Positions 1 through 50,298 of a stretch of 64,000 nucleotides of DNA are shown piece by piece; position 1 is the first letter of the stretch, and each line of letters opens with the position of its first letter. Position numbers and translations under genes: made by a program. The stretch covers positions 22,993 to 86,992 of the forward strand of contig CAYPDQ010000001.1 in NCBI GenBank assembly GCA_964409535.1, given 5' to 3'. The notes below the pieces were generated by a model that had not been told where the DNA came from, ran no database searches, and saw only the letters and a program-made list of their open reading frames with translations. This stretch comes from an uncultured Candidatus Saccharibacteria bacterium (GTDB lineage: Bacteria > Patescibacteriota > Minisyncoccia > UBA6257 > 2-01-FULL-56-20).

Positions 1-22
1 CTCACCGTGAGCAGGGCTACTT

Positions 23-1270
23 TTATTCGAGATTTACCGGAAAGTAAAATTCAATCCCCTTCTCAATTAAAGAGCGGTTATTGGCCAAAATTTCTTTCTT
101 GAAGTTCCACGCCAAGACGTAATAAACGTCCGGTGGCTCACTAAGCTCTTTCTCTATCACAATCGGGATATGCGAACCCGGCGAATACAATCCGCGGCGC
201 AATTCGTTCTTCTCAACCAGACAATCCAGGTAGTCGGTGCCTATACCGAAGTAGTTAAGCAGGGTGTTGCCCTTGACCGGAGCGCCAAATCCGAATATCC
301 GCTTGCCTGCCTTTTTCGCCTCGCCAAGATATTCAAGATTTTTCTTTTTCATTTCTTTAATCTTCTCTGCAAATTTCAAGTAGGTAGAAAGTTCGCCCAC
401 CTTCGCCTTTTCCTCCTCTCCGATAAGCGTTAAAAGACGTGGCGACTTCTCCCTCGCGTTCTTATGAGTGGCGAAGCCAACAATGGATCCGCCGTGCACC
501 GGCGCAAGATAGGCGTCGAAGAGCGACAACTCGTGAAGATTAAGCAGCGTTTCCAGGTTTCTAAGGTTGTAGTAGAGCAAATGTTCATGATAGATCTGGT
601 CAAAAGCCAGATTTTCCAAGATCTTTTTCATATATAAAAACTGCACCACGAAGATGCCGTCCTCCGCCAAAACCTCTCTTACTCCGTCGGTCACGGAATG
701 AAGTTCTTCCAGATGGAAGAACACTCCTGCCGCGTTAATAACATTAAACTTCCGGCCGAGCTTTCTCGCCGATTCCAGATTGAAAAATGCATGGACGGTA
801 GGAATGCCCGCATCCATCGCCATTTTGGCCGGGGCCTCCGCTGACTCCACGCCCAAAACGTCGTAGCCAAGCTCCTTAAAGTGTTTGAGCTGGGTTCCAT
901 CGTTGGAACCGATATCCAATACTGACTTTCCCGGAGTATCCTTGAAGAACGTCCCGTCCACCTCTTCGGCTACCGACTTAAAGTGGTCACTTAACGTTTT
1001 GGTGACGCCGGAAAGGTAGGTATGCTCGCCAAACATAACCTCCTTGGGAACCGTATAATCAAGCTGAGGCGTCCGGCAGTCCATACAGAAAACAACCCGC
1101 AGGGGATAAAACGGTTCCTTGCCCACCTCTTCTCTCTTCAAAAAATGGTTGCCCCACGGCTGGAAACCGAGGTCCACCGCCGGCTCCAGCTTGGGAGAGC
1201 CACATACCCGGCATTCTTTTATGAGCCGTTCGGGGTCGCAGACGATGTTTTTGGTGATTGATTTTTCCAT
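23..1270 (-). CDS. NDP-hexose C-methyltransferase (TylC3-like class I SAM MTase with N-terminal Cys-rich zinc-binding domain and C-methyltransferase C-terminal domain)
   Basis: 415-aa ORF. N-terminal CxxC...CxxC cluster (CRVCGS...CMDCRT), a central SAM-binding motif (VLDIGSNDG) and a long C-terminal domain typical of the sugar C-3/C-5 methyltransferase family. Divergent from the adjacent dehydratase gene. Confidence 0.7.
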   Translation of the reverse strand: MEKSITKNIVCDPERLIKECRVCGSPKLEPAVDLGFQPWGNHFLKREEVGKEPFYPLRVVFCMDCRTPQLDYTVPKEVMFGEHTYLSGVTKTLSDHFKSVAEEVDGTFFKDTPGKSVLDIGSNDGTQLKHFKELGYDVLGVESAEAPAKMAMDAGIPTVHAFFNLESARKLGRKFNVINAAGVFFHLEELHSVTDGVREVLAEDGIFVVQFLYMKKILENLAFDQIYHEHLLYYNLRNLETLLNLHELSLFDAYLAPVHGGSIVGFATHKNAREKSPRLLTLIGEEEKAKVGELSTYLKFAEKIKEMKKKNLEYLGEAKKAGKRIFGFGAPVKGNTLLNYFGIGTDYLDCLVEKNELRRGLYSPGSHIPIVIEKELSEPPDVYYVLAWNFKKEILANNRSLIEKGIEFYFPVNLE

Positions 1271-1302
1271 ATATTTAGGGTATTTTCTATGAAAACATAT
1301 AT

Positions 1303-2364
1303 ATGCCTAAGTTGAAAGGTAAGACCATCCTCATAACCGGCGGAGCGGGCTTTATTGGGAGCAATGCAGTGGAATACTTCTTTAACAAGTACCCCAATTG
1401 CACTTTTATTGTACTGGACGCTTTGACCTACGCAGGTGATGTAAAAAACATCCCGCAAAACATTCGCAACAGTAAGAACTTCAGATTTTGGTACGGAAAC
1501 GTCAGGAACGCAAAGTTGGTCGAGCATTTGGTGTCCCAATCGGACATCATCATTCATTTCGCCGCCGAAACCCACGTTGCGAGGTCGATTTTTGACGACT
1601 TGAGCTTCTTCGAAACCGACGTCATGGGCACGCAAACCATCGCGAACGCCGTACTGCACAACAAGCGCAAAATTGAAAAATTCATCCACATCTCAACCAG
1701 CGAAGTGTACGGCACCGCGCTCACGCCAAAGATGGGCGAAAATCATCCCCTGAACCCTCAAAGCCCCTACGCCGCCGCCAAGGCCGGCGCCGACCGCCTT
1801 GTCTATTCGTACTTGAGCACCTACCGAATACCGGCCGTGATCGTCAGGCCTTTCAATATATTCGGACCGCGCCAGCATTTGGAAAAATTGATTCCCCGCT
1901 TCGTCACCAGCTGCATTTTAAACGAACCCCTGACTATTCACGGGAGCGGTAAAAGCAGCCGGGACTTCACTTACGTTGAGGACTTGATAAGAGCCCTGGA
2001 TGCCGTCGTAACCGCGCCGGACAAGAAGGTTTTGGGCCAGGTTTTCAACGTAGGTTCCGGTAAAAGCTATTCGATCCGTCAAATCGCAAACCTCATCATT
2101 AAGGTTATAAACAACAGGAGCAGGCATATCAGGTACAGTCAATCCAGTATGAATATCGGCGACCGGCCAGGGCAAGTTTTCCGCCACACTGCAGACAACA
2201 GGAAGATCGGGAAGATATTGGGCTGGCACCCACGCGTTGACTTCAAAGAAGGACTGATCCGAACTATCGATTGGTATACGAGAAACGATGAGTGGTGGCG
2301 CGATAAGATATGGATGCGCCACGTGCCGATCGAAACCGAGGAAGGAAAGACGGAGATGCATTAG
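1303..2364 (+). CDS. NDP-glucose 4,6-dehydratase (extended SDR; dTDP- or CDP-glucose specific)
   Basis: TGGAGFIGS Rossmann motif, YxxxK catalytic region and a length of about 353 aa. Placement next to the E1-type 3-dehydrase suggests a CDP-glucose 4,6-dehydratase role. Confidence 0.8.
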   Translation: MPKLKGKTILITGGAGFIGSNAVEYFFNKYPNCTFIVLDALTYAGDVKNIPQNIRNSKNFRFWYGNVRNAKLVEHLVSQSDIIIHFAAETHVARSIFDDLSFFETDVMGTQTIANAVLHNKRKIEKFIHISTSEVYGTALTPKMGENHPLNPQSPYAAAKAGADRLVYSYLSTYRIPAVIVRPFNIFGPRQHLEKLIPRFVTSCILNEPLTIHGSGKSSRDFTYVEDLIRALDAVVTAPDKKVLGQVFNVGSGKSYSIRQIANLIIKVINNRSRHIRYSQSSMNIGDRPGQVFRHTADNRKIGKILGWHPRVDFKEGLIRTIDWYTRNDEWWRDKIWMRHVPIETEEGKTEMH

Positions 2365-2387
2365 TCCGAGCAAGTCCCGGCCAGAAA

Positions 2388-3623
2388 ATGGGTCCTTCTC
2401 TTAAAAATAAAAAGTTTGTGGCGGGAAAAGATTGGATCTGGTACGCGCCGAACGGCGAGGACGCATTCGGTGATCCTGAAATAAGAGCCGTAACAGATAC
2501 CTTGAAAAAAGGGTGGCTTACAGTCGGAAGAGTAACGGCAGAATTCGAAAACAAAATCGCCCGCCTTTTTGGAAAGAAATACGGCCTTTTTACGAATTCC
2601 GGCTCCTCTGCAAATCTCTTGGCTTTTGCAGTCAGTGGATTTCCAAGGGGCAGCGAGGTGATCACTCCGGCGTGCAACTTCAACACGACAGTGGCGCCAA
2701 TCGTCCAAATGGGCCTGGTACCGGTATTCGTGGACGTAGAAATGGGAAGATACGTGATAGACCCTTCCGTGCTCAAGAAAGCTTTGTCCAAAAGAACCGT
2801 AGCGGTAATGGCGCCGCATCTCATTGGCAACTTCGTTGATCTTCAAAAAATCCGGTCTTTCACAAAGAGGCACGGTTTGGTTTTCATTGAAGACAGCTGC
2901 GACACCATCGGCGGCCTTTTCGACCGCAAAAGATCGGGTGCCTGGAGCGACATCACTACTACAAGTTTCTACGCTTCCCACATAATCACAACCGGCGGCG
3001 CTGGCGGAATGCTGATGACCAACGATAGGAATATAAGAGAAAGGGCCCGTGTTTTAAGGGATTGGGGAAGGGGGATTTCCCGGCACGACGAGAAAATCCG
3101 CTCTCGTCTTTCCACTTTCAGGATTGACGGGAAGCCATACGACAGCGCTTTCGTGTTCGTTGAGCAGGGCTATAATTTCAAACCTACGGAAATGCAAGCT
3201 GCCTTCGGACTGCAGCAACTAAGCCGTTTGTCTAAATTCGCCGGGATTCGCCGCCGTAACTTTAAAAAACTCTTCAACTTCTTCAAGCGGTTTGAAAATT
3301 ACTTTGTGCTGCCGCAAGAAACCCTCAATACCAAAACGAATTGGTTGGCCTTCCCCTTGACGGTAAGAAAATCAGCACCCTTCAAGCGGAACGAAATCGT
3401 CAAATACCTGGAAGACCGCAAAATTCAAACCCGCCCTCTTTTCTCGGGAAATATATTGAAACACCCGGCGTACAGGAACATAAAGCACCGAAGGGTAGGC
3501 AACCTGGAGAATTCGCAGTACATTCTTGAACAATCGTTTTTGATCGGTTTGCACCATGGCCTGAACGACAAAATGCTGGGGTATATGTTTGAGGTGTTCG
3601 ATAATTTTCTAAGTATAAAGTAA
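2388..3623 (+). CDS. DegT/DnrJ/EryC1-family PMP-dependent NDP-4-keto-6-deoxyhexose 3-dehydrase (E1; RfbH/DdhC-like)
   Basis: The frame is open from 2310, but a start at ATG 2388 (MGPSLKNKK...) avoids overlap with the upstream gene. The length (about 411 aa from ATG 2388; 437 for the full ORF from 2310) and the motif layout match the aminotransferase-fold class V family and the RfbH-type 3-dehydrases. Confidence 0.7.
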   Translation: MGPSLKNKKFVAGKDWIWYAPNGEDAFGDPEIRAVTDTLKKGWLTVGRVTAEFENKIARLFGKKYGLFTNSGSSANLLAFAVSGFPRGSEVITPACNFNTTVAPIVQMGLVPVFVDVEMGRYVIDPSVLKKALSKRTVAVMAPHLIGNFVDLQKIRSFTKRHGLVFIEDSCDTIGGLFDRKRSGAWSDITTTSFYASHIITTGGAGGMLMTNDRNIRERARVLRDWGRGISRHDEKIRSRLSTFRIDGKPYDSAFVFVEQGYNFKPTEMQAAFGLQQLSRLSKFAGIRRRNFKKLFNFFKRFENYFVLPQETLNTKTNWLAFPLTVRKSAPFKRNEIVKYLEDRKIQTRPLFSGNILKHPAYRNIKHRRVGNLENSQYILEQSFLIGLHHGLNDKMLGYMFEVFDNFLSIK

Positions 3624-3628
3624 ACAAG

Positions 3629-4561
3629 GTGAAAAAAATCCTGATAACAGGTGGGGCTGGTTTCGTCGGTTCCAACTTCGTTCACGCCCTTACCAAGTCG
3701 GGCGACGAGGTAAATTTAATTGTCAGACCCGAATCCGATCTTTGGCGGATAGAATCGGTCAAAAGCAAGTTGCAACTACACACCTTAGACCTGACCAAGG
3801 CCGAGGAGATAAAAGCATTCGTCGGCAACCTAAAACCGGAGATCATTCTGCATTTCGCAGCTTACGGAGCGTATCCCGGCAGGCCCGCTGACCCTCAAAC
3901 AATGATCTTGACGAACATATTAGGAACTGCAAACCTCTTGGAGGCGTGCGCGGAAACCGGATTTAAGTGCTTTATAAACACCGGCAGCAGTTCGGAATAC
4001 GGCGAAAAAGATCACCCAATTTCAGAAAAAGACTTGCTGGAACCGAACAACCTGTACGGGGTCAGTAAAGCCGCAGGCACCCTGTTCTGCCAGCTGATAG
4101 CAAGAAAAACTGGGTTGCCCATAATCACCGCGCGGCTTTTCTCTCCGTACGGTTATTTTGAAGAAGGCGGTCGTCTAATGCCGAACCTCGCTCAAGCCGC
4201 GCTTGGCGACAAAGAATTCAACGCTCTTTCCCCCGCCGCAGTGCGAGATTTCGTCTTCATAGAGGATGTTATAGATGCCTATATGAAAATGATTAATAGC
4301 CCAGATAGAATCAAGGGGCAGATTTTTAACATCGCATCCGGAAAGCAGTACTCTATCGCCGAGGTGGTCGCGGCAGTGGAAAAAATACTGAATAAGAAAA
4401 TACAAGTCACGTATGGGAAGGTGGAGGCAAAACAACGTGAGCCGAAAATGTGGGTTGCGGATATCTCTAAAGCAAGGGAGGTTCTCGGGTGGTCTCCCGC
4501 TCACTCCTTGGAAGACGGATTGCGCAAGTATATTACTTGGGCTGTCGAAACGAACTCATGA
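3629..4561 (+). CDS. NAD(P)-dependent epimerase/reductase, SDR family (CDP-paratose/abequose synthase-like)
   Basis: GTG start. ILITGGAGFVGSN Rossmann motif, about 310 aa. Its stop overlaps the next ATG (ATGA). Confidence 0.7.
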   Translation: MKKILITGGAGFVGSNFVHALTKSGDEVNLIVRPESDLWRIESVKSKLQLHTLDLTKAEEIKAFVGNLKPEIILHFAAYGAYPGRPADPQTMILTNILGTANLLEACAETGFKCFINTGSSSEYGEKDHPISEKDLLEPNNLYGVSKAAGTLFCQLIARKTGLPIITARLFSPYGYFEEGGRLMPNLAQAALGDKEFNALSPAAVRDFVFIEDVIDAYMKMINSPDRIKGQIFNIASGKQYSIAEVVAAVEKILNKKIQVTYGKVEAKQREPKMWVADISKAREVLGWSPAHSLEDGLRKYITWAVETNS

Positions 4562-5373
4562 TAAAAAAGGACCTGAAAAAGATCGCGAAAGAAGTAAGAC
4601 TGTCGGTCTTGGAGATGATCTCTCGCACGAAAACCGCGCACATAGGCAGCAGTTCCTCCGCTATAGAAATCTTAATCTCTCTATATTTTGAAGTACTAAA
4701 CGTTGATCCGGGCGATCCTTCGAATCCGAACCGGGATCGATTTATTTTGAGCAAAGGTCACGCCGCGGCCGGGCTCTACGCCACCCTGGCCGCAAAAGGA
4801 TTTATAGAAAAGGAGGATCTGAACAAGTACTACGCAAACGGCAGTTTTTTGCCCGGCCACGTAAGTCGGGGCAATATACCGGGAATTGAGGCGTCTACCG
4901 GCTCATTGGGGCACGGTCTGCCGATCGGAACCGGGATGGCGTGGCTGGCAAAAAAAGATGGTCGGCGACACCGCGTTTTCGTTCTCTTGAGCGATGGCGA
5001 ATGCGATGAGGGCTCTACTTGGGAAGCCGTTCTTTTTGCCGGACACCACAGATTAGATAACTTAGTCGCGATCATAGATTACAACAAGTGGCAATCGTTC
5101 GGACGAACCGAAGATATTTTGGATTTAGAACCGTTGGCAGAAAAATGGAGGGCTTTCAACTGGTCGGTCCGAGAAGTAGACGGGCACGATGTGGAAAGAA
5201 TCGTTTCGGTATTGAAGCAAGTCCCCTTTGAGGCATCTCGTCCCAGTGCCGTTATCGCTCACACGGTAAAGGGCAAGGGCTTGCCCTCTTTGGAGGACAA
5301 GCTGGAGTCGCATTACCTTTCCCCGTCCACTGAAGAAATCGAGAAAATCAAAGAAGAGCTTAACCGGCAATGA
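4558..5373 (+). CDS. Transketolase, N-terminal (ThDP-binding) subunit
   Basis: ThDP-binding region GDGECDEG and HxxxGxxLP-like motifs; about 271 aa. Start ATG at 4558 coupled to the upstream stop. Confidence 0.8.
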   Translation: MIKKDLKKIAKEVRLSVLEMISRTKTAHIGSSSSAIEILISLYFEVLNVDPGDPSNPNRDRFILSKGHAAAGLYATLAAKGFIEKEDLNKYYANGSFLPGHVSRGNIPGIEASTGSLGHGLPIGTGMAWLAKKDGRRHRVFVLLSDGECDEGSTWEAVLFAGHHRLDNLVAIIDYNKWQSFGRTEDILDLEPLAEKWRAFNWSVREVDGHDVERIVSVLKQVPFEASRPSAVIAHTVKGKGLPSLEDKLESHYLSPSTEEIEKIKEELNRQ

Positions 5374-6299
5374 GAAAAGCGTTTGTCAGCGCATTAACCG
5401 AGTTGGCCAGGGATAATAAAGACGTCTTCCTTTTAACCGGGGACCTTGGTTTCTCCGTTTTCGAGGATTTTATAAAAATCTTTCCAGGCCAATATTTGAA
5501 CTGCGGTGTTGCCGAACAAAATATGGTCGGAATGGCTGCCGGCCTAGCCATGAACGGCAAGCATGTTTTCGTATATTCAATAGTTCCTTTCGCGACAATG
5601 AGACCTTTTGAGCAGATCAGGAACGACGTTTGCTTGCACAATTTGGGAGTGAAAATAGTAGGCGTGGGCGGCGGATACAGCTACGGCCAACTTGGCGCCA
5701 CGCACCACGCCCTGGAAGATATAGCTATCATGAAAACCCTGCCGAATATGAGGGTTTTCGTGCCGGCGGATCCCATTGAAACGGCCTTGGCCGTTCGCGC
5801 AATTGCCTTTGACGGTCAACCGGCGTACCTGCGGCTCGGCAAGAGCAAAGAGGAAAATCTACATCCAGCACCGTTTGAACTGCAAGTAGGCAAAGCTAAC
5901 GTACTAAGAAACGGCGGCGATTTGACTGTCATCGGCGCCGGGCCCATTCTGCGCAATGCGCTGGGGGCGGCAGAAATTTTATCCGGCCAAGGCATAAACT
6001 GCAGAGTAATTTCCATGACAACGGTGAAACCCTTGGATAAGGATGAGATTATAAGAAGCGCGGGTATGGGCCCTCTCGTCACGGTAGAAGAACATAGCAT
6101 CATCGGCGGCCTCGGAGAATCCGTCGCTGCCGTCCTGACAGAAGCAAATTTAAATTGCGGCTTCAAAAAAATAGGGGTGGAAGACAAATTTATGAAAGTA
6201 GTCGGCGATCAGGACTACCTGCGCGAGCAGAACAAGCTCGGTCCGAGACAACTGGCTGAATCAATATCCGCTTTCTACAATACTATTTCAAAGAAATGA
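5370..6299 (+). CDS. Transketolase, C-terminal (pyrimidine-binding) subunit
   Basis: 309-aa ORF with transketolase Pyr and C-terminal domain features. Its start overlaps the stop of the N-terminal subunit, as in split transketolases. Confidence 0.8.
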   Translation: MRKAFVSALTELARDNKDVFLLTGDLGFSVFEDFIKIFPGQYLNCGVAEQNMVGMAAGLAMNGKHVFVYSIVPFATMRPFEQIRNDVCLHNLGVKIVGVGGGYSYGQLGATHHALEDIAIMKTLPNMRVFVPADPIETALAVRAIAFDGQPAYLRLGKSKEENLHPAPFELQVGKANVLRNGGDLTVIGAGPILRNALGAAEILSGQGINCRVISMTTVKPLDKDEIIRSAGMGPLVTVEEHSIIGGLGESVAAVLTEANLNCGFKKIGVEDKFMKVVGDQDYLREQNKLGPRQLAESISAFYNTISKK

Positions 6300-7258
6300 A
6301 TATTCTTCTTAGTATTTGCATTCCTACGTACAACCAAGTTGGTGAGTTGCGCGAGACCCTCAAAAGCCTCGTGCCCCAACTGAAGGAAGAAGTTGAAGTG
6401 GTAATCGGGGACGACAGTGATAACCTGGACTCCTCCGAAATGATCAAGAGAGAATTCAGCTCTTACCCGATCCGCCACTTCAAAAACGAAAAGCGTCTGG
6501 GTTTTGACAAGAATCTTCTATTCGTCACCGGCCAGGCGCGCGGCCGCTATATCTGGTGGTTCGGCGACGATGTTTTTGAACCAGATGCTCTATCTTATAT
6601 CTTGCCTGTCCTAAAACGGGATCCGGAGATATCTTTCCTATGGGTCAATTCCATCAACTCTTCTTCTTCGGGTCACCGCTTTCCCAGCCTGCCCTACACG
6701 AAAGACAAGATATGGCCGGACGGCAACGAGGTTCTAAAAGATGCTTCAAATCTTCTTGCTTTTGTCTCCGCGATTGTCTTTCGAAAGGAAGATATCGCTG
6801 ATCTAAACGTGGAAAAAATGGAAAAAATCGTGGATCTTGGGTTTATCAATCTTCACATCGTGCTTCATCTTCTTTCAAAGAAAAATAAATTTTATTGTGT
6901 CAGCAAGCCCTTGTTTGAAGTAAAACCTACCGCGCCCGGGATGCACAATTACAATCGTTTTCAAGTTTTGGGCATAAATTACTGTAAAGTTGCTTCCGCG
7001 TTCCGTGGTAAATTCGCTAGAAAATCAATGAGGGTTTTGCTGGCAAATAACTTTGGCCACGTGTGGCGCGGGGTGCTTGTGGGATGGCTGCGGGGATATG
7101 ACACGCCTCGCGGAAAAACCGGGGCGGTCTTAAGGTATTACTGGAGCTTTCCTGAAGCGTGGGCTGCAATGCTTCTCTTTTTGATGCCGAAGTTCGTAAC
7201 CCGGTTTTCGTATTTTTTCTATAAACGAATCCTGCGTCGGACCTATTCTACTGCTTGA
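6296..7258 (+). CDS. Glycosyltransferase family 2
   Basis: N-terminal ICIPTYNQ...DDSD motif typical of GT-A/GT2 enzymes. Confidence 0.75.
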   Translation: MNILLSICIPTYNQVGELRETLKSLVPQLKEEVEVVIGDDSDNLDSSEMIKREFSSYPIRHFKNEKRLGFDKNLLFVTGQARGRYIWWFGDDVFEPDALSYILPVLKRDPEISFLWVNSINSSSSGHRFPSLPYTKDKIWPDGNEVLKDASNLLAFVSAIVFRKEDIADLNVEKMEKIVDLGFINLHIVLHLLSKKNKFYCVSKPLFEVKPTAPGMHNYNRFQVLGINYCKVASAFRGKFARKSMRVLLANNFGHVWRGVLVGWLRGYDTPRGKTGAVLRYYWSFPEAWAAMLLFLMPKFVTRFSYFFYKRILRRTYSTA

Positions 7259-7276
7259 AAAACCCCTTAGGGACGA

Positions 7277-8482
7277 TCACTTCGTCTCATACTGCTCCTC
7301 CACATAACCTTTGCGAAGCCAGGAGGGAAATCGGTATGTCCGCCCGAACCCGCCCATCTCTCTTATTATTTTCGGAATGACAAGGCTTCTGTGTTCCGTA
7401 CCAGAAAATAAACGCGCCTGATGTTCATGGTTTATACTAAGCAGATACTTTGAGCACCTTTTAACTTTGTTCAAATAATCCTCAACAACTTCCTTCCCCA
7501 TCTCAGGAAAGGAGTCCTGGTTAAAAACCAAACCATGCTTTTTGTTGCCGAATTCCCAATAGGGTAAGATGCGAATGGCCTTCCCCTCATCGGGTTCTCC
7601 GTACAGAACAAGCTTAGCGTCCGGCAGCGCTTTGATCAGATGCCACGCTGTCATCACATTCATAACCGGGAGATCAAAAAGAGAATAGTCCCGGAAGCCA
7701 AATCTATGCGCATATACTGCAACTTTACCCAGCCCACCTCCGATTTCCCCAACGGGGGTCTCACTCCCCACTATACTGCTAATTCTCCACGCTGCATAAA
7801 GAGATTGTAGGTCCCGGAATTCAAACAACCCGCTCCTTAGTTCCAATTTAAACAAACCCCCGTCAACCTCGGGCGGAGCGATTTTTATACTCAACTTCTT
7901 TTCTATCTTTTCCACCAACCAATCGGGGTCCGCGTAGATATTCTTCTTTGCAACGTATGGAATGACTGTTTCGTAGGGCAAAATATCCAACGCTTCGGCA
8001 AGCGAAACAAGTATATCTTTTATCAGCGCGGCTTCCCTCCTCCTCAAGTAAGAACTTTTTCTCAAACTCCGGTACTCGGCAACATTACCCGACACACCAT
8101 ATGTGGATTTCCACCGATGCATGTTAGAGAGATAATCCGCGAGAGATTGCGAATCTTCGTCAAGAAGTATTTTAAGCAGCTCACTATGGTACGTCTTCCT
8201 GTTATCGTCCCACGCATCCGGGTATGCTTTTTGTGGTGCATATTTCTCCTCATCCGAGGATGCCCTACGAAAGGCTCCTAAGATTCTCTCTGCTACGGCG
8301 CGGTCCCTCTCACTGGTGTTAAATATAGACACACTTAACTTGCCGTAAGGAAACCCTTCGGGCATAGGATGAAAAAAGAGGTTTCTGTCGTATCGGACGA
8401 AAAATCTTTTAAAGACCTTCATTAGAAGAAGAGGCATACCCCCTTCTTCCAATACGAACTTTATCCTTGAGAAAATTCCCAT
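7277..8482 (-). CDS. Class I SAM-dependent methyltransferase-like protein (putative sugar O-methyltransferase), paralog A
   Basis: 401 aa with an EIGGGLGK glycine-rich SAM-binding motif. About 50% identical to the divergently transcribed ORF at 8566-9786. Confidence 0.5.
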   Translation of the reverse strand: MGIFSRIKFVLEEGGMPLLLMKVFKRFFVRYDRNLFFHPMPEGFPYGKLSVSIFNTSERDRAVAERILGAFRRASSDEEKYAPQKAYPDAWDDNRKTYHSELLKILLDEDSQSLADYLSNMHRWKSTYGVSGNVAEYRSLRKSSYLRRREAALIKDILVSLAEALDILPYETVIPYVAKKNIYADPDWLVEKIEKKLSIKIAPPEVDGGLFKLELRSGLFEFRDLQSLYAAWRISSIVGSETPVGEIGGGLGKVAVYAHRFGFRDYSLFDLPVMNVMTAWHLIKALPDAKLVLYGEPDEGKAIRILPYWEFGNKKHGLVFNQDSFPEMGKEVVEDYLNKVKRCSKYLLSINHEHQARLFSGTEHRSLVIPKIIREMGGFGRTYRFPSWLRKGYVEEQYETK

Positions 8483-8565
8483 TCCATAAATTAAAAGTCG
8501 AATTTATCCGGTTGTAAACCCATTATTTGCGAGCCATGGAGCGCTCTGATAGGATTTAGACGAAA

Positions 8566-9786
8566 GTGAAAGTACTTATCCAAGCAAAAAAAGCGATAAA
8601 CGAAGGAGGGTTGCCGCTCCTATTTGAAAAAATATGGCGGAAACTTCGAACGAGCTACCTGTACTACTTCGCTCCCGCTCACCAGATGCCGAAGGGCTTA
8701 CCTTCGGTACGCGTGGAATTCACAATAACGACGCCCGCCAAGGACGACGTTTTGATAGCAAAGAGAATACTGGCAGCTTTCCAGAAGGCATCTAAAGATG
8801 AGGGCGAACACGCAAATCTCCATAAGTCCGACAAGGATTCATGGGATAATATCGGGAACCAATACCATGCGGATTTCTACCGGATTCTATTTGCAAACGA
8901 TGCGTATCAGGTTGCTGATCGTCTGCGCAATATGCATTCGGACAAGTTGACGTTCGGAATATCGGGTGGTTCAACCGAGTACAATGATCTAATATCCAGC
9001 GCGAGGCTTAGAAGCGAAAAGGGGGTTATTGTAAAAGACATTCTTGTCTCTTTTGCCGAAACGTTAGGAATCTTGCCATACGAAACCAACGTACCGTATA
9101 TGGCAAAAAAGAACATTTATGCCGATTCCGACTGGCTCGTTGACGAAATCGAAAAGAAGATCGGTATCTCTATCATCCCGCCGGAAATCGACGGCGGGTT
9201 GTTCAAGCTCAGGCTAAAGAAAGGATTGTTTGATATGCGAGACCTTTGGTCTTTATATGCAGCCTGGCGTATCAGTCGGATTATCAAAACAAAATCCCGA
9301 GTATGCGAAATCGGTGCAGGCTTGGGCAAATCCGCTTTGTATGCAGACAGGTTCGGCTTTCGGGACTACGCCATTTTTGACCTGCCCATCATCAACGCCG
9401 TCCAAGCTTGGTATCTAATCAAGGCCCTGCCCAAAAGAGCCATTGTGCTCTATGGCGAAAAGCGCGACGAAAAAGATTCTATTAAAATAATGCCTTACTG
9501 GAAATTTATGGAAGGGACCGATTTCTACGAATTGGTGCTGAATGAAGATTCATTCCCCGAAATCGACCGAGAAGTAGTGGACAAGTACTTACAGAAAATG
9601 AAAGAGCGTGCAAGATACTTCTTGAGCATCAACCAGGAATTCGGAGCTCCTGCTTTTGCGGGTGCCAGTCAGAACCACCAAATTGTTCCACACAGGGTTG
9701 AAACTTCGGGTGGATATAAAAGAATCCACCGCTTTCCCTTCTGGCTAAGGAAGGGCTACGTAGAGGAACTGTATGAGATACCATAG
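8566..9786 (+). CDS. Class I SAM-dependent methyltransferase-like protein (putative sugar O-methyltransferase), paralog B
   Basis: 406 aa with an EIGAGLGK motif and the same C-terminal ...RFPFWLRKGYVEELYE ending as paralog A. Confidence 0.5.
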   Translation: MKVLIQAKKAINEGGLPLLFEKIWRKLRTSYLYYFAPAHQMPKGLPSVRVEFTITTPAKDDVLIAKRILAAFQKASKDEGEHANLHKSDKDSWDNIGNQYHADFYRILFANDAYQVADRLRNMHSDKLTFGISGGSTEYNDLISSARLRSEKGVIVKDILVSFAETLGILPYETNVPYMAKKNIYADSDWLVDEIEKKIGISIIPPEIDGGLFKLRLKKGLFDMRDLWSLYAAWRISRIIKTKSRVCEIGAGLGKSALYADRFGFRDYAIFDLPIINAVQAWYLIKALPKRAIVLYGEKRDEKDSIKIMPYWKFMEGTDFYELVLNEDSFPEIDREVVDKYLQKMKERARYFLSINQEFGAPAFAGASQNHQIVPHRVETSGGYKRIHRFPFWLRKGYVEELYEIP

Positions 9787-9788
9787 TA

Positions 9789-10874
9789 TTACAAAGGCAT
9801 CCCCATCATCCTGAATATATCCTCAAAACGCTTTTCCGTGGAGTGGTCGCGGATGGTGCGCTCGTAGCCCCGGCGCGCAATCTCCTCCCGCTCCCCGGGA
9901 TGAGCCAGATAATACCTTATCTTCTCCACTAAGTCTTTTTCGTCTTTATATACCACGATCTCTTCTCCAAGTTTGTAGTAATCCCGCAGGTCGTCCGCGT
10001 CCTCGGTAAGCTCGAACGTACCGCACGCGGGCACCTCAAAGTTCCTGGCTCTTACCCACGAATTCCGTTTCATAGACCACATCCGGACGTTGTCGTAGAA
10101 GTTCCAGATGTCCGGTTTGATGGGAAGTCCTCCTTCTCCCAAGTCTGCGCGACGCAAAAAGAGACGCACAATCGGCCGCCAGCCGACGTAAAACGGGGCT
10201 GTATTCAAAGACAGCACGATTTTACTTCGGTTGATAATGCCAACAAGCTCATCTTGGCTCACCGGCCCCTCCGGCCAACCGGTTCCCCGCACGAACACCG
10301 GTATGCCAGCATTTTTAACATAACTGATGACGCGCTGACGCGTCTTGTTCCAAAGACCGATAAAGCTTACATCGATGTCTTTTTTTCTGTTTTCCAGCTT
10401 CCTGAATTCCTCAAGATCCACGCCCGGTTGATGATGAATGACGTTGTTACACCCAATACTTTTATATTTTTTGACCGCGCGCGAATCGTAGGTCACAATC
10501 CACGTAAAATATTTGGCGACATGGCGGCCGAACCGCTCCCACCGCCATGTGTCGTCATCAGCGATGTAAACGAATGTTGTGAATTTCTGATTGCGCATTT
10601 TTTTGAAAAGTTCCCTGCCCCAATCGTTTTCGCTGAAGCCGGCAATACATACGTCGGGCTTCGCTCGCACGATATGTTCCCAGAGTTTCTTCCTTGCCTC
10701 CTCGCGTCCATAGGTAATAATTGCATCGTCAAAAAAGAAAGCATCCACCGTGTGGCCGCGCGGCTCCGCGGCTTTAGCGAGAGGCACTTGAAGGCGATAA
10801 TTCCCGTCAGCCACGCGAAGCTGTTTCCAGTCCCTGTCCCAGACGTATTTATATGTGACGATGAGGATCTTCAT
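9789..10874 (-). CDS. Glycosyltransferase (GT1-like / CgeB-DUF3880 family)
   Basis: Probable start at the internal ATG (MKILIVTYKY...). The C-terminal region matches the glycosyltransferase group 1 / CgeB family (E...L..Y..G..I). Confidence 0.55.
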   Translation of the reverse strand: MKILIVTYKYVWDRDWKQLRVADGNYRLQVPLAKAAEPRGHTVDAFFFDDAIITYGREEARKKLWEHIVRAKPDVCIAGFSENDWGRELFKKMRNQKFTTFVYIADDDTWRWERFGRHVAKYFTWIVTYDSRAVKKYKSIGCNNVIHHQPGVDLEEFRKLENRKKDIDVSFIGLWNKTRQRVISYVKNAGIPVFVRGTGWPEGPVSQDELVGIINRSKIVLSLNTAPFYVGWRPIVRLFLRRADLGEGGLPIKPDIWNFYDNVRMWSMKRNSWVRARNFEVPACGTFELTEDADDLRDYYKLGEEIVVYKDEKDLVEKIRYYLAHPGEREEIARRGYERTIRDHSTEKRFEDIFRMMGMPL

Positions 10875-11652
10875 GAGGCATATTCCTTTTGAAATTCTCA
10901 TATTCTTCAAGCCACGCGCCGAGCATAGCCGCGTTTTCTTTCCCGACGAGAGACAGCCCCAACATCTCGCGGACAATCGCCTCCTCATCGATCTCGGCAC
11001 GCGGGTCTTTCTCCGCCACTGCCAAGACATTTGGCATCGCATTGCCGCCGTACCGCTCGTAAAACGAATTCGGTGTTAGGCGCCCAAGCGGATTCAAAAT
11101 AGGCAAGTAGAGCGATTCGGGCAAGCGCGCAAATAACTTGCCGACGACGGGTAATTTTTGCGCGTGCTTCGCGACGCCATGCCAGTAGGAACGTATTTTT
11201 ATATTACGGAATCCGGTTTTGTGGAGCACGAATTTGAATTTCCGTTTGTCCCAAAAATCACGGTGTTCCGCCCAAGATGCTTCCTGTGACCCAAAAATGT
11301 GCCGCCCCAATTGGAAACGCCGCCGGAGCGAAGTGGCACGACAGTATTCACGGGCAGACATTTCAAAATCAGGCGTTTCAATGACGAGTATGCCTCTGGG
11401 CTTGAGCCACCGCCGCCAGTTGAGAAGTAAACCTAAAGCGACGGAACGCGTGAAATGTTCAAACAAGTGGTGACTTCGCACCTCATCGACGGTACCTTCG
11501 GGAAAAGACAGCGTCCGGATATCGGCATATCGGTCCGCCCTTGGACGCATTACGCTATGCTCGCTTGGCGGGAAATCAATATTCACATATCCCTCTAAAT
11601 ACTTTTCCCCGCTCCCCAGATGCAGTTTCACCGGCCGCTTTTGCATTTCCAT
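10849..11652 (-). CDS. Class I SAM-dependent methyltransferase
   Basis: 267 aa with a Methyltransf_11-like core (VLDLGCG-like region HLGSGEKYLEGYVNID). Overlaps the downstream GT start by 26 nt. Confidence 0.55.
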   Translation of the reverse strand: MEMQKRPVKLHLGSGEKYLEGYVNIDFPPSEHSVMRPRADRYADIRTLSFPEGTVDEVRSHHLFEHFTRSVALGLLLNWRRWLKPRGILVIETPDFEMSAREYCRATSLRRRFQLGRHIFGSQEASWAEHRDFWDKRKFKFVLHKTGFRNIKIRSYWHGVAKHAQKLPVVGKLFARLPESLYLPILNPLGRLTPNSFYERYGGNAMPNVLAVAEKDPRAEIDEEAIVREMLGLSLVGKENAAMLGAWLEEYENFKRNMPHEDPHRHI

Positions 11653-11661
11653 TCTCCAATA

Positions 11662-12195
11662 TCATACAAGGTTTTTGAACGGATTCACAGAACCTTTCGC
11701 CGCGTCGCGCGCACTTAAAACCGGGTTTTCTGTTGGCCAGTTTATCTTGAACCGCGGATCGTTCCACTTATATGCGAACTGGCGGCCCTGGTCGTAAGAG
11801 CCGGATTGCTTGTAATGCACGATTACACTCTCGGAGAGCGCCAGATAGCCGCTCGCGTGCTTGGGCGGCACGAGAATGCTCAATCTGTTTTCCTCCCCGA
11901 GTTCAACCGAAACCCAATCGCCGAAAGAAGGCGACGCTGTGTCCGCATTGAGCGCCACAAAGAATACTTTTCCCGAAACGCAGGTGATGAGCTTGTAGCG
12001 CACGTCGTCGCCGTGCAGGCCGCGTAAGACGTTCTTCTTTGAAACCGAGATGTCGTCTTCCTCAAAGTGAACGTTAATGCCTAACTCTTTGAGTTTGGTC
12101 TCGTTCCAAATTTCAAGAAAAATTCCCCGCGCATCCGAAAACGGCTCATGCTTCAAAAGCAGCACTCCTTTCAGTTTGGTCTTCTCGATCACCAT
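11662..12195 (-). CDS. rmlC: dTDP-4-dehydrorhamnose 3,5-epimerase (RmlC-like cupin)
   Basis: 177 aa. RGLHGD..., KLITCVSGKVF and conserved His/Lys/Tyr positions of the RmlC family. Confidence 0.85.
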   Translation of the reverse strand: MVIEKTKLKGVLLLKHEPFSDARGIFLEIWNETKLKELGINVHFEEDDISVSKKNVLRGLHGDDVRYKLITCVSGKVFFVALNADTASPSFGDWVSVELGEENRLSILVPPKHASGYLALSESVIVHYKQSGSYDQGRQFAYKWNDPRFKINWPTENPVLSARDAAKGSVNPFKNLV

Positions 12196-12258
12196 GGCAA
12201 GCGTGTCGCTATACTATAAACGCAGAACACAGGAGCTGCAACTTAAATTTAGCCGCGC

Positions 12259-13335
12259 CTAAAACTGCGGATTCCAAGGGATGAATCCCGATTGGTCGCC
12301 TGGATCGGGAATATAGCTGACATCGTCAAGAAGATCCAGGTTCTGGCCAAAATAATAATTCAGCAGAACGCGGAAAGTGTTAACCGGTGTTATGGAATCG
12401 TAAAGAAGCTTGTCTCCTCCATCGGGGAAATAATAGGCGTTAAGGATAGGAAGTGAGTTAATGCCCGGGACAATCAGCTTTTTGGCTCGATCCGGTTCAG
12501 CCAGATTTTTCAGCATATCCTCGTCGTTCGAGAAGCGAAAGCCGTGATCTCCCTGCAGTATTATGATAGGCTCGGGTTCGGAGCGTTCCAGCAACGTATC
12601 TACAAGCTTTACGACTTCTTTGTTGATATACGCTACCTGGCCAAGATAGTTTTCCACTGCGTTTCTCTCGGTGGCCTCTTTCCCTGTAACGAAGTTGCCG
12701 TCGGCGTCAAAAACGTACGGAGCATGAGGCAGTAAAAAGTGAGCGAATACGAAAACCGGAGCGCCTCTCTTCTCTGGAACTTCAGCAAGTTTCCGAAGTT
12801 GGAACTGCACTCTTTCCCACTGCAGGAACCGTCTGTCCAGAAATCTCATTTTCGCCGCGAAACGCACCTCGTTGTTCAGAAAATTTTCCACATGACTGAA
12901 TGCGGTATTTTCCCATACTGCCCATTGGTATGGAGAAAACAGGGTCAAATTTACGTTTTCATCCGCATATCGGTTGAAGTAAGTGAAAGCATCCGCCCCG
13001 AAGTGTAAATACCTGTATCCATAGTAACCCAAAAAGTCTTTAACTGCGTTATCCTCGACCATCTTCAAGTTGCTGTTTGACGCCTGTCGGCTTTGAAGAT
13101 AAATCATATTCAAAGAAGACGGTAGAGATAATCCGGTTGCGTAATAATTACTCAAGCTTTGCTTGGCCACAAAAAATCCCCTCTTTTCAAGCGAGGCCAC
13201 CATCTCATCCTCCTTCTCGAAACCCATTATTTGCCTTATAACGTCCGGCGAGGAGTATGCGTCCAGAATAATATAATATATGTCGCGGAGTTCGCCGACT
13301 GGACCGTTCAATACTACTTCAGCTCTAGCCGGCAA
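12259..13335 (-). CDS. Sulfatase / alkaline-phosphatase-superfamily domain (LtaS / phosphoglycerol-transferase-like), C-terminal part of a split gene
   Basis: 358 aa. It begins DIYYIILDAYSS, which is the metal-binding start of the sulfatase domain. No N-terminal membrane anchor lies in this frame. Confidence 0.6.
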   Translation of the reverse strand: MPARAEVVLNGPVGELRDIYYIILDAYSSPDVIRQIMGFEKEDEMVASLEKRGFFVAKQSLSNYYATGLSLPSSLNMIYLQSRQASNSNLKMVEDNAVKDFLGYYGYRYLHFGADAFTYFNRYADENVNLTLFSPYQWAVWENTAFSHVENFLNNEVRFAAKMRFLDRRFLQWERVQFQLRKLAEVPEKRGAPVFVFAHFLLPHAPYVFDADGNFVTGKEATERNAVENYLGQVAYINKEVVKLVDTLLERSEPEPIIILQGDHGFRFSNDEDMLKNLAEPDRAKKLIVPGINSLPILNAYYFPDGGDKLLYDSITPVNTFRVLLNYYFGQNLDLLDDVSYIPDPGDQSGFIPWNPQF

Positions 13336-13784
13336 TATTTCCCGCTGGGCAGCAAGGTAAGCCCCCCCACCCGGAAGAAGGATAGTAAAACAAACATCCC
13401 CGATGCAGCGAAGAGAGCGTGGTTCACGGCCGATAAGTCCATTGCGGTTTTTCTAATCGCATACAACGCGAAAATGAAAACGGACAAGAGGATAATAAGT
13501 GCCCAACTGTATTGAACTTTAATTAGCGAATTAAATAAAATTCTGTAGATATACTCAAAGGAAAGAGTGAACAAGAGAAAAAGCGAGGCCGCCGGCGCTG
13601 CTTTTTGCGGATCGCGAAGAAAAAACCGTAAAATCCCGAACACTATCGCTCCGAATCCGACGAGAACCGCAACGGCTGCGGGCACCTCTCGCAGGAAAAC
13701 TTCGGCGAAATTCCTGCCCCACAAGAAAATCGCCGGCAGTATAGCAAACAGAAAAGGATGGAAAAGTTGAATTCTTTTAATCAT
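13314..13784 (-). CDS. Polytopic membrane domain (4-5 TM), likely the N-terminal part of the sulfatase/LtaS-like protein
   Basis: 156 aa, hydrophobic throughout. It overlaps the sulfatase ORF by 22 nt in a different frame. Confidence 0.5.
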   Translation of the reverse strand: MIKRIQLFHPFLFAILPAIFLWGRNFAEVFLREVPAAVAVLVGFGAIVFGILRFFLRDPQKAAPAASLFLLFTLSFEYIYRILFNSLIKVQYSWALIILLSVFIFALYAIRKTAMDLSAVNHALFAASGMFVLLSFFRVGGLTLLPSGKYCRLELK

Positions 13785-15193
13785 GCGCTTATCTTTTTCA
13801 TAAGATAGATCAGCCTCTCTGAATCGGCCAATCTCTTTTTGCCCTTGATAGAGAAGTGTTTCCCAAACTTTTTCTCAAACTCTTCTTCGCAGTAAGCCGG
13901 GAAAACATCTCTTCTGGTTGCAAGCAAACGCCCAACTTGTGAGTCGGTTTTCGGAACGAACTCCACAATTAGATTCTTACACAACCTACTGAAATACTCC
14001 GCTATCTTCCCAAAGGGAACGCCGTTGGAGATAGCAAGGTGGTGAACAAGGGCGAGGGCCAGAACCACGTCAGCCCCTCCCCTGCTTTCCAAAGACATTC
14101 TTTCTTGGTTAGCCCAGCCAACGGCGGGACTGGGGTTCGTCAAGTCCAACAAAAGAGGCAACAGGTTTTTTTCCTTCCTCTTTTTCACTTCAAGGTAATT
14201 CTCCTCGACCGCCTTTGGGTCGATATCAAAGGATACGGTTTCGATGCCCCTGTCGCTCGCAAGGCGGCTGAACTTACCGGTGTTCGCGCCGAAATCCCAT
14301 ACGGTTTTGGGATTTGCAGTAGACAAAAAGCCGGAAACGGCTTCCGTCTTTTCCGAAAACGCTTCTACAGAATAATTCGTCTCCTCATAGTAGCTTTGCC
14401 ACTCAGTTCTCTGGTTTTTGAGCAAGAGCCCGTCAACCGCAGATTTCAGGCTGTCTATAAGCGCAATAAGATTCTGGCGCGGGATGCTCCAGTGCGGCAT
14501 AGCCTTGTTGGCCGAGAATCTCTTTTGGCCCATAGCGTGGAGATGCAGATGCGAAACTACAAGCGGGTGGAATAAGGTGCGCATTGGAAGCATGGAGGCC
14601 GCCAAGTCGAGAGGTACGCCGTCGATAAAAACGCGGAAAAATTGATTCATGCGTAAATCCCGGTAGCTCATAAGCGCTAAGGGTGCCAAAAAGTGCTGAC
14701 AGAACTGACGATACCCCACCCAGGGAGATCCCTCTATGTAATTCTCGAACGAGAGCGTATCTATAAACATGGGTTGGCCGTGCCAGAATTGCACATTAAA
14801 GGCGCTTGCGTCTTTCAAAATCATGTTATGATCAAGCGCTTTTTTCTGAACTTCCAAGGTCAAAAGAGCGGCGTCTTTCAGCTGGCTGAAAGACCATTCG
14901 TAAGGATATGATATGAACGGTATCTTTTCGGGAGAAATAATCTTGTAGACCTCTCTTCTTTTAGGGGAATTTAATTTGATTTCCCGATGAGGAACTAATA
15001 GTCCACTACCTATCAATGCTTCGTAAAGCCCAGACTCTTTTGCGCAGTCATAATGTTCCTTATAACAGTAATTTACGTTTCGGTATATCGTTCCGCCCTT
15101 CGCAAAAAGAGAGCCGCCTGGATCTCGAAAAGAACTCGGAATCTCCGTTCGATTAAACCTGCTCATCGGTTTTCTTATCCTCATCTTTTTCAT
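13781..15193 (-). CDS. Two-domain protein with a C-terminal class I SAM-dependent methyltransferase
   Basis: 470 aa. The DFGANTGKFS motif I and the downstream acidic motif place the MTase domain in the C-terminal half. The N-terminal half has no recognisable family. Confidence 0.5.
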   Translation of the reverse strand: MKKMRIRKPMSRFNRTEIPSSFRDPGGSLFAKGGTIYRNVNYCYKEHYDCAKESGLYEALIGSGLLVPHREIKLNSPKRREVYKIISPEKIPFISYPYEWSFSQLKDAALLTLEVQKKALDHNMILKDASAFNVQFWHGQPMFIDTLSFENYIEGSPWVGYRQFCQHFLAPLALMSYRDLRMNQFFRVFIDGVPLDLAASMLPMRTLFHPLVVSHLHLHAMGQKRFSANKAMPHWSIPRQNLIALIDSLKSAVDGLLLKNQRTEWQSYYEETNYSVEAFSEKTEAVSGFLSTANPKTVWDFGANTGKFSRLASDRGIETVSFDIDPKAVEENYLEVKKRKEKNLLPLLLDLTNPSPAVGWANQERMSLESRGGADVVLALALVHHLAISNGVPFGKIAEYFSRLCKNLIVEFVPKTDSQVGRLLATRRDVFPAYCEEEFEKKFGKHFSIKGKKRLADSERLIYLMKKISA

Positions 15194-15413
15194 CCAGTGG
15201 CGTCCCGGCTTGATCGGAGCCGAAAGGTTTTTTCAACCTCCGCCACAATACTCTGAGGTAAAAAGCTGCGCCCAAAATGCCCGCCAAAATTGCTTGAACT
15301 ATGAAGCTGCCTGTTCCCAAGTCAATATAAGCTTCGGCGGTTAGCGGATTCACCAGTCCCAAGAACGAAAGAAGCAAAATCCATGCCGTCATTTCTTGCT
15401 TAGAAAGTATCAT
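15153..15413 (-). CDS. Small membrane protein (2 TM)
   Basis: 86 aa with two hydrophobic helices and a charged C-terminus. Confidence 0.35.
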   Translation of the reverse strand: MILSKQEMTAWILLLSFLGLVNPLTAEAYIDLGTGSFIVQAILAGILGAAFYLRVLWRRLKKPFGSDQAGTPLDEKDEDKKTDEQV

Positions 15414-15437
15414 GGATGCGATAGGATAGGATAGGAT

Positions 15438-16004: not shown

Positions 16005-16014
16005 GGTGCTAAAA

Positions 16015-17891: not shown

Positions 17892-17894
17892 TTG

Positions 17895-19854: not shown

Positions 19855-19855
19855 G

Positions 19856-39525: not shown

Positions 39526-39587
39526 ACCTTAATTCTACCTCATCTAATATGAAGTCAAGCGAAGATGTGGATAAGCAGCTTTTTCAG

Positions 39588-50281: not shown

Positions 50282-50298
50282 ATATCTCGTCTACTGCG

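Follow-up and report, generated by a model that had tools for sequence, protein, structure and literature searches.

The stretch of DNA analysed here, a 64,000-nucleotide window of contig CAYPDQ010000001.1 from an uncultured Candidatus Saccharibacteria bacterium, carries near its start an operon (1303-7258) in which a two-gene, transketolase-like (TK-like) thiamine diphosphate (ThDP) enzyme is encoded among genes of deoxysugar synthesis. The acceptor channel of this enzyme is altered and its relatives are linked to sugar-nucleotide genes, and a two-carbon-branched 3,6-dideoxyhexose is therefore the best prediction for the product of the operon. By analogy with known systems, we favour with modest confidence a pathway in which the TK-like pair would add a two-carbon branch at C4 of a nucleoside diphosphate (NDP)-4-keto-3,6-dideoxyhexose, followed by reduction by a short-chain dehydrogenase/reductase (SDR). 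The best explanation of the operon as a whole is a sugar-nucleotide tailoring line within a Wzx/Wzy-type surface-glycan locus of a bacterium resembling the Patescibacteria (candidate phyla radiation, CPR).

All genes of the operon lie on the forward strand. An RmlB-like NDP-hexose 4,6-dehydratase (1303-2364, 353 aa; matches to TIGR01181 and to Protein Data Bank (PDB) structures), referred to below as type A, is followed by an RfbH/E1-like 3-dehydrase (2388-3623, 411 aa; NF011936 and DegT), an extended SDR (3629-4561, 310 aa; Pfam Epimerase and GDP_Man_Dehyd, with the motifs GGAGFVGS and S...YGVSK), the N-terminal half of the TK-like enzyme with the diphosphate-binding (PP) domain (TK-N, 4558-5373, 271 aa; Transketolase_N, E 2e-46) and its C-terminal half with the pyrimidine-binding and C-terminal domains (TK-C, 5370-6299, 309 aa; Transket_pyr and Transketolase_C). 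ATGA overlaps were found at the SDR/TK-N, TK-N/TK-C and TK-C/GT2 junctions; owing to the last of these, the operon extends into a family-2 glycosyltransferase (GT2) gene at 6296-7258 (Glycos_transf_2, E 2.4e-18). The longest open reading frames (ORFs) of the 3-dehydrase and TK-N begin at 2310 and 4489, respectively, and the most likely starts are 2388 and 4558: the shorter products of 411 and 271 aa exist as exact sequences in public records and match Logan gene calls. A first-pass annotation of this DNA had described a deoxysugar cassette with a two-subunit transketolase whose stop and start overlap. Hidden Markov model scans recovered every gene of that cassette, tightly packed and with strong family matches, and the ATGA at the TK-N/TK-C junction confirmed the overlap. 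The window proteins matched solved structures at E 1e-64 to 1e-84, and their closest named homologs came from Candidatus Brennerbacteria, Wolfebacteria and other Patescibacteria.

The fold of the TK-like pair is that of a transketolase. TK-N scored 159 bits against Transketolase_N vs 25 bits against E1_dh, and the closest solved structure was the split transketolase of Carboxydothermus hydrogenoformans (229 bits to 6yak for TK-N and 220 bits to 6yaj for TK-C). The window pair shares with this canonical enzyme (6YAK/6YAJ) the two-gene layout, the ThDP motif and the donor-side His, with about 42% identity over the C-half. TK-N keeps the equivalents of human transketolase His37, His77, His110 and His258, as well as the DG...N ThDP motif (SDGE...DYN). 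Residues were counted over 201 relatives, metagenome loci included. The cofactor-activating Glu (E49 of the window TK-C, human E366) and the donor-side His equivalent to yeast H481 were present in the window protein and in 201/201 relatives; the key His and Arg residues were, like the ThDP-activating Glu, 100% conserved. The window pair also has the phosphate-binding equivalents of human Arg318, Ser345 and Arg474.

In contrast to this intact donor side, two residues that define transketolases are replaced. At the position of the substrate-channel His (human H416, yeast H469, E. coli H461), which both the human and the Carboxydothermus enzymes retain, the window TK-C has Gly100, and 201/201 relatives likewise have Gly. 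Leu108 replaces the Asp that contacts the acceptor C2 hydroxyl and governs stereospecificity (human D424, yeast D477); the relatives have L, Y, A, Q, M, N, F or S there, and none of them has Asp (0/201). Where the canonical split transketolase reads THAG...GEDG, the window protein reads VGGG...GQLG, and a family signature VGVGGGYSYGQLGATHH, found in 201/201 relatives, takes the place of the canonical ..H.G....GEDG..H. The signature VG.G.G.SYG..G.THH was present in all 120 best database homologs. The Gly/non-Asp change is a family trait and not a quirk of the window gene. With both of these defining residues replaced, the pair is not a canonical transketolase: the donor half of its active site looks intact, and the acceptor channel appears remodelled, wider, and hydrophobic where a transketolase reads a hydroxyl. 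A hydrophobic residue at the Asp position would fit an acceptor with a deoxy carbon beside its carbonyl, such as a ring ketone. The spacing between carbonyl and phosphate in an NDP-4-keto-hexose is close to that in erythrose 4-phosphate, which could explain why the phosphate-binding arginines were kept. Residues that hold the distal end of a ketose phosphate in transketolases have been lost, which is a weak hint at a small keto acid as donor.

Gene context pointed in the same direction. A metagenome scan with the family alignment confirmed at least 529 relatives, drawn from the first 600 pattern matches, and a single-protein search of genome contigs returned 12 loci. Among CPR bacteria and DPANN or other archaea, the TK-like family is widespread in surface-glycan loci, and some cultivable bacteria have it too. 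The first-pass annotation had called transketolase pairs in glycan loci rare, a claim that did not survive the number of relatives in this one scan and the presence of the cassette in Alphaproteobacteria, Paenibacillus and archaea besides CPR bacteria. Neighbourhoods were counted in 28 metagenome loci, those with at least 4 kb upstream and at least 2.5 kb downstream among the matches listed. Within 5 kb of the TK-like pair, a sugar-nucleotide gene of any kind was found in 27/28 loci, a DegT-family gene in 22 (16 of them E1-like), a 4,6-dehydratase in 17, an ortholog of the SDR in 16 and a nucleotidyltransferase in 12. The SDR ortholog lay directly upstream of TK-N in 16/35 metagenome loci with room to check. 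The commonest gene order was nucleotidyltransferase (cytidylyltransferase), CDP-glucose-type dehydratase, SDR, TK-N, TK-C and E1-like (RfbH) gene; in a second recurrent arrangement, a Lys-containing aminotransferase followed TK-C immediately.

The comparison of CPR loci took in the window, L020 (Brennerbacteria), L018, L014 (Levyibacteria), L016 (Saccharimonadales), and L021 and L022 (Wolfebacteria), seven in all. The family is also carried by complete genomes, for instance that of Levyibacteria CP066685. An orthologous SDR (38-54% identity) was directly upstream of TK-N and TK-C in 7/7 of the loci compared. The resulting SDR-TK-N-TK-C triad was joined to either of two unrelated dehydratase types, type A, which is RmlB-like with a TSE motif as in the window, or type B, which has the SDK motif of CDP-glucose 4,6-dehydratases and follows a glucose-1-phosphate cytidylyltransferase-like gene (TIGR02623, 241-259 bits). 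A GT2 gene came directly after the pair in L020 and L016, and within two genes of it in L014, L021 and L022. Two cultured bacteria carry pairs with the family signature. Plasmid pHY1 of Methylovirgula sp. HY1 has the order rfbF, rfbG, oxidoreductase, rfbH, TK-N, TK-C, and Paenibacillus cellulosilyticus has rfbF, rfbG, a methyltransferase, a 635-aa SDR::TK-N fusion and TK-C. The accessions of the two proteins are WP_255565200 and WP_255565201 in Methylovirgula sp. HY1, and WP_110042955 and WP_110042956 in P. cellulosilyticus. The fusion provides independent evidence for a joint function of the SDR and the ThDP enzyme.

These observations bear on the possibility that the pair is a working transketolase, either a housekeeping enzyme or one dedicated to supplying sedoheptulose 7-phosphate to a heptose pathway of the locus (GmhA, HddA-like kinase, GmhB-like phosphatase). 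The window does encode GmhA (15438-16004; TIGR00441, 180 bits), the HddA-like kinase and the GmhB-like phosphatase are found in the 10 kb upstream of it, and the pair also has heptose genes nearby in L014 (along with a transaldolase), L018, L004, L005 and L099. No other transketolase was found in the 74 kb examined, and the ThDP-binding, donor-side and phosphate-binding Arg residues are intact. We nevertheless consider this reading very unlikely, since 201/201 family members lack both the channel His and the acceptor-reading Asp that all studied transketolases have, and heptose genes lay within 5 kb of the pair in 0/28 well-flanked metagenome loci compared with 27/28 for deoxysugar genes. Four of the seven CPR loci (L016, L020, L021 and L022) have no heptose genes within 8-10 kb, and L020 contains two such pairs 4 kb apart. 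An SDR::TK-N fusion, and translational coupling to an SDR and a GT2, would make no sense for a pentose-phosphate enzyme; gene context argues against ketol transfer among pentose phosphates. Sedoheptulose 7-phosphate supply as the main explanation was rejected after the heptose-gene count (0/28 loci) and the active-site analysis. The first-pass annotation had named, as an outcome that would undo its prediction, that the halves were simply the central-metabolism transketolase of the organism; the altered acceptor channel (201/201) and the sugar-nucleotide linkage in nearly every locus examined indicated otherwise.

The same conservation makes it highly improbable that the product of the operon is an ordinary 3,6-dideoxyhexose with no branch, akin to abequose, paratose or ascarylose, and that the TK-like genes are inactive passengers or have a regulatory or structural role. 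Such a sugar would need no more than a dehydratase, a 3-dehydrase and one SDR, but both halves of the pair are full length, the Glu that activates ThDP is invariant in the 201 members, as are the key His and Arg residues, the pair has been retained across bacteria and archaea, and it is fused to the SDR in one lineage.

A second enzyme of the predicted pathway is the 3-dehydrase. Its product matched the DegT family at E 9.5e-82 and the RfbH model NF011936 at 391.7 bits, close to the cut-off of 423 and under it; the competing PseC and ArnB models scored 197 and 136 bits. Among solved structures, the Yersinia E1 (3bcx) matched at 288 bits, ColD at 188 and everything else at 145 or below. A His occupies the position of E1 His220 (SFYASH aligned to SFYPAH of 3bcx). 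On these scores the 3-dehydrase is assigned to the RfbH/E1 branch and not to the ArnB/PseC-type aminotransferases, in agreement with the earlier placement (392 vs 136/197 bits, with the His at the His220 position). The label E1-type, also given earlier, held for the branch and the catalytic His and failed for the cluster: the [2Fe-2S] ligands Cys251, Cys253 and Cys261 of E1 are missing ('WGRGISRHDEKIRS'), with the equivalent of Cys193 kept. In place of the CxC...C loop of E1 (C-X57-C-X1-C-X7-C) the sequence reads 'GISRHDEKIRS', and there are 2 Cys in the entire protein. This cluster-less subtype was also found in L020, L018 and L026. Over the E1-like neighbours of TK-like pairs, the dehydrase His was present in 31/31 and the Fe-S cysteines were kept in 19/31.

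Because the Fe-S cysteines are missing, the 3-dehydrase is probably ColD-like and independent of an E3 reductase. By this analogy, its pyridoxamine 5'-phosphate (PMP) would likely be regenerated by transamination, and external electrons would not be needed. The E1 enzymes (DdhC/RfbH/AscC) have the same DegT fold, a His for the aminotransferase Lys and the highest overall similarity to the window protein, but they have the cluster ligands Cys251/253/261 and an E3 partner (DdhD/AscD), and the window 3-dehydrase is without both. ColD, like the window protein, has the catalytic His and neither an Fe-S cluster nor a reductase partner; the likeness to ColD is a mechanistic analogy and not family membership (188 vs 288 bits for E1). 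By its sequence the window enzyme is a cluster-less offshoot of the E1 branch, one that may have converged on ColD-like chemistry. A ColD-like mechanism would also explain why no E3 was detected. Family scans of the 64-kb window found no nucleotidyltransferase, E3-type reductase or second transketolase, nor were any of these found in the 10 kb upstream of position 1, and no Fer2/FAD_binding_6/NAD_binding_1-type (E3, DdhD/AscD-like) protein appeared in the Pfam results of either region. The first-pass annotation was right that the window has no nucleotidyltransferase or E3 gene; its suggestion that they might lie upstream found no support within 10 kb of position 1. The E3 is probably unneeded, and is probably not hiding upstream.

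The 4,6-dehydratase departs from RmlB in two respects. It scored 310 bits against TIGR01181, under the equivalog cut-off of 365, and its catalytic motif is TSE where RmlB has TDE (STSEVYG vs STDEVYG). The YAAAK motif is present, PDB dTDP-glucose 4,6-dehydratases matched at 187-234 bits (best 234), and orthologs 66-72% identical hold the same position in L020, L018 and L022. A T-S-E motif is used by the GDP-mannose dehydratase family, and dehydratase activity of the window protein therefore remains likely. The earlier assignment as an NDP-glucose 4,6-dehydratase holds for the RmlB-like family; with TSE in place of TDE, 'NDP-glucose' and any choice of nucleotide are tentative.

Put together, these enzymes suggest the following route. 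The RmlB-like dehydratase would generate an NDP-4-keto-6-deoxyhexose, from which the RfbH-like, His-containing dehydrase would strip the C3 hydroxyl to give an NDP-4-keto-3,6-dideoxy sugar, with PMP supplied by transamination. The two-subunit TK-like ThDP enzyme would load a C2 unit and attack the C4 ketone, so that C4 would become a tertiary alcohol bearing an acyl branch. With hydroxypyruvate or a ketose as donor the branch would be glycolyl, and with pyruvate it would be acetyl. The translationally coupled SDR would then reduce the carbonyl of the branch in a YerF-like step, and the downstream GT2, a candidate transferase, would move the branched 3,6-dideoxy sugar onto the glycan.

Several observations weigh against this route. 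The reaction, the donor and the position of attack of the TK-like pair are, like every chemical step above, inferred from parts whose identity, conservation and linkage were observed directly. Heptose genes (GmhA, HddA-like and GmhB-like) are present in the window and the 10 kb upstream, where the scans detected no nucleotidyltransferase. The dehydratase reads TSE and not TDE, and the Arg and Ser residues with which transketolases bind sugar phosphates were kept, so the substrate may be phosphorylated and not a nucleotide. In two of the seven CPR loci (L021 and L022) the operon with the triad includes no 3-dehydrase, and about 40% of the metagenome loci pair the triad with a Lys-type aminotransferase instead; the acceptor is therefore not always a 3,6-dideoxy sugar. 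In archaeal loci such as L004, the pair stands beside HldE/GmhA-like and radical SAM genes with no 4,6-dehydratase.

Some of these points would fit a different reaction of the pair on a sugar nucleotide: attack on a C3 ketone, chain extension of an aldehyde to a linear higher-carbon sugar, or cleavage of a C2 ketol side chain, the reaction of DesAB on steroids. The SDR would in such a case create or remove the carbonyl that the pair uses, and we regard both propositions as unlikely, although considerably less so than a working transketolase. The triad often occurs with aminotransferases or without a 3-dehydrase, archaeal pairs occur with radical SAM enzymes, and the nearest solved relatives of the SDR are 4-epimerases and 4-reductases, not side-chain reductases. 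C3 branching is known for enzymes of the alpha-keto acid dehydrogenase type (PMC12247030), and split transketolases with non-canonical roles exist, the steroid desmolase DesAB being an example (PMC3735941). On the other hand, the commonest architecture combines a complete CDP-3,6-dideoxyhexose set with the triad and would deliver the C4 ketone as the sole carbonyl, no aldehyde-generating oxidase is conserved with the pair, and yersiniose is an exact chemical precedent for attack at C4.

In the biosynthesis of yersiniose A in Yersinia pseudotuberculosis, DdhA-D act first, the ThDP enzyme YerE then adds a C2 unit to the C4 ketone and YerF reduces the branch (PMC9306805). The logic of nucleotidyltransferase, 4,6-dehydratase, PMP-dependent 3-dehydrase, ThDP enzyme and NAD(P)H reductase is common to both systems, and many relatives of the window cassette have the CDP-glucose entry genes of the yersiniose route, rfbF, rfbG and rfbH. 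Gene order agrees with a YerE/YerF-type module, in that a ThDP enzyme and a reductase are encoded with the genes for an NDP-4-keto-3,6-dideoxyhexose. The parts themselves differ. YerE is a single polypeptide of the acetolactate-synthase/decarboxylase fold, whereas the window ThDP enzyme has two subunits and the transketolase fold; the window dehydrase has no Fe-S motif and no E3, and the window dehydratase is RmlB-like and not CDP-type. By analogy, the window cassette would work like YerE/YerF without being a member of the YerE family.

Branching of 3- and 4-keto sugars is established for YerE-like enzymes and for pairs resembling alpha-keto acid dehydrogenases (PMC12247030). The latter, E1-like pairs of the aldgamycin, paulomycin, kibdelomycin and avilamycin pathways, are two-subunit ThDP enzymes whose beta subunit shares Transket_pyr and Transketolase_C with TK-C, and they place an acetyl branch, often reduced afterwards, on a 3- or 4-keto deoxysugar (PMC12247030). 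Their alpha subunit is of the E1_dh type and they belong to actinomycete antibiotic clusters, in contrast to the Transketolase_N type of the window N-half. Split-gene transketolases have been proposed, uncharacterised in vitro, to form the hydroxyacetyl branch of miharamycin and amipurimycin and to act in 13 further Streptomyces clusters (PMC12247030, section 2.3). Like the window operon, those clusters have a two-gene transketolase in a sugar-tailoring setting and a proposed addition of a C2 ketol to a keto sugar; the comparison was made by description. They make secondary metabolites and are confined to Streptomycetes, whereas members of the present family sit in cell-surface glycan loci, in CPR bacteria and archaea as well as in one alphaproteobacterium and one Paenibacillus. 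A search of a limited library, which is not proof of absence, found no literature tying such transketolase genes to rfbH/CDP-glucose cassettes or glycan loci.

Two ThDP classes are known to make branched sugars, and a transketolase class has so far only been proposed for a few Streptomyces clusters. A large, sequence-defined TK-like family tied to the classical 3,6-dideoxyhexose pathway across very distant lineages is a possible new enzyme class. More specifically, it is conceivable, though on balance doubtful, that the family forms a third class of sugar-branching ThDP enzymes, in which a transketolase-derived Gly/non-Asp heterodimer would move glycolaldehyde from hydroxypyruvate or a ketose to the C4 ketone of NDP-deoxysugars. 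If so, the product after the SDR would be a 4-C-(1,2-dihydroxyethyl)- or glycolyl-branched 3,6-dideoxyhexose. To our knowledge, there is no report of such a sugar in cell-surface glycans. Branched-chain sugars are uncommon, act as antigens and have uses as chiral tertiary alcohols. The data suggest that unusual branched deoxysugars occur in the cell-surface glycans of CPR bacteria and small archaea. In genomes of this kind, a 'transketolase' annotation is not to be taken as evidence of a pentose phosphate pathway; if the proposal is correct, genes of this family may have been miscounted as pentose-phosphate enzymes in metabolic reconstructions of small genomes.

A C-methyltransferase gene (23-1270, reverse strand, 415 aa) diverges from the operon across a 32-bp gap. 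Its product belongs to the TylC3/TcaB9/MtmC family of sugar 3-C-methyltransferases by Pfam and PDB matches (Methyltransf_13/14/23, E 2.5e-49) and has all three domains, an N-terminal 4-Cys zinc domain (CRVC...CMDC), an S-adenosylmethionine (SAM)-binding Rossmann domain and a C-terminal Methyltransf_14 domain. The nearest solved relatives were the sugar 3-C-methyltransferases MtmC (PDB 4rv9, 241 bits), TcaB9 (188 bits) and KijD1; domains and relatives alike bear out the TylC3-like assignment made earlier. A C-methyltransferase lay within 5 kb of a TK-like pair in just 2/28 metagenome loci, and a sugar that is both C-methylated and C2-branched is therefore not implied. The gene is an accessory one, outside the conserved module. 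The first-pass annotation had predicted a C-branched 3,6-dideoxyhexose that could carry a two-carbon branch or a C-methyl group; the two-carbon branch remains the best prediction. The C-methyltransferase may use the same 4-keto intermediate or modify a second sugar of the glycan; with an RmlC-like epimerase and extra SDRs, it may make a second, C-methylated sugar from that intermediate.

The cassette lies at the edge of a glycan locus of about 20 kb in the window, which also encodes O-methyltransferases, glycosyltransferases, the RmlC-like epimerase, GmhA and a Wzy-like protein. The locus runs at least 10 kb beyond position 1, and this upstream part was recovered as L001, with genes for a B12-radical SAM protein, two SDRs, glycosyltransferases, the HddA-like kinase, the GmhB-like phosphatase, a second Wzy-like protein and a flippase. 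The G+C content of the glycan locus (window 1-20000) is 0.46-0.52 vs 0.54-0.59 in the adjoining housekeeping region (20000-64000), which includes RNase Y, iPGM, RNase J, ArgRS, ClpB-like, CTP synthase and RuvB genes; the lower G+C is consistent with horizontal acquisition. The B12-binding radical SAM protein (L001 11306-12991, 561 aa) is encoded about 60 bp upstream of position 1, tail-to-tail with the C-methyltransferase, and has weak similarity to radical SAM C- and P-methyltransferases. Similar B12-radical SAM genes were found within 8 kb of TK-like pairs in 5/22 loci. Immediately after the GT2 gene, two divergent paralogs of about 400 aa with about 50% mutual identity (7277-8482, reverse; 8566-9786, forward) had no Pfam match and fit TIGR04371, a model of NanM-type putative sugar O-methyltransferases.

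Two of the loci mentioned above had further features. In the Candidatus Brennerbacteria locus (L020 13033-20930; JACPEK010000004.1), the second TK-like pair shares the non-canonical signature and follows the syntenic cassette at a distance of 4 kb. Its neighbours are genes for an aldo-keto reductase, an RmlC-like epimerase and a classical short-chain SDR, together with two B12-radical SAM genes; L020 would have two branching modules in one locus. In Candidatus Methanoperedens sp. BLZ2 (L004 4828-18412), the pair is preceded by an HldE-like kinase/nucleotidyltransferase, GmhA and two radical SAM genes (one SPASM), and followed by two C-methyltransferase homologs, a short SDR and a B12-radical SAM gene. 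This arrangement is a different way of feeding the pair.

The housekeeping region of the window contained several unrelated features. A 1208-aa class I aminoacyl-tRNA synthetase of the Ile/Val/Leu type (29017-32643, reverse strand; tRNA-synt_1 and Anticodon_1) has its catalytic domain split by an inserted histidine-phosphatase domain (His_Phos_1, residues 523-676), which is unusual. A 491-aa Peptidase_S74 protein (endosialidase chaperone, phage tail-fibre type) adjoins the tmRNA gene at 39587-39904 (region 38050-39904); it could be what is left of a prophage at a classic integration site, or else a fibre on the cell surface. A low-GC patch at 48000-51000 (0.44 vs about 0.56 around it) may be the remnant of an integrated element; it contains an ORF (49114-50916, forward strand) with serine-recombinase 'Recombinase' and Zn-ribbon domains. 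A tRNA-Arg(CCG) gene (50207-50281) lies on the opposite strand inside the coordinates of this ORF, which is probably over-called. Finally, a tRNA-Leu(CAG) gene (27187-27272) overlaps the start of the listed RNase J ORF (27177), and the true RNase J start is therefore further downstream.

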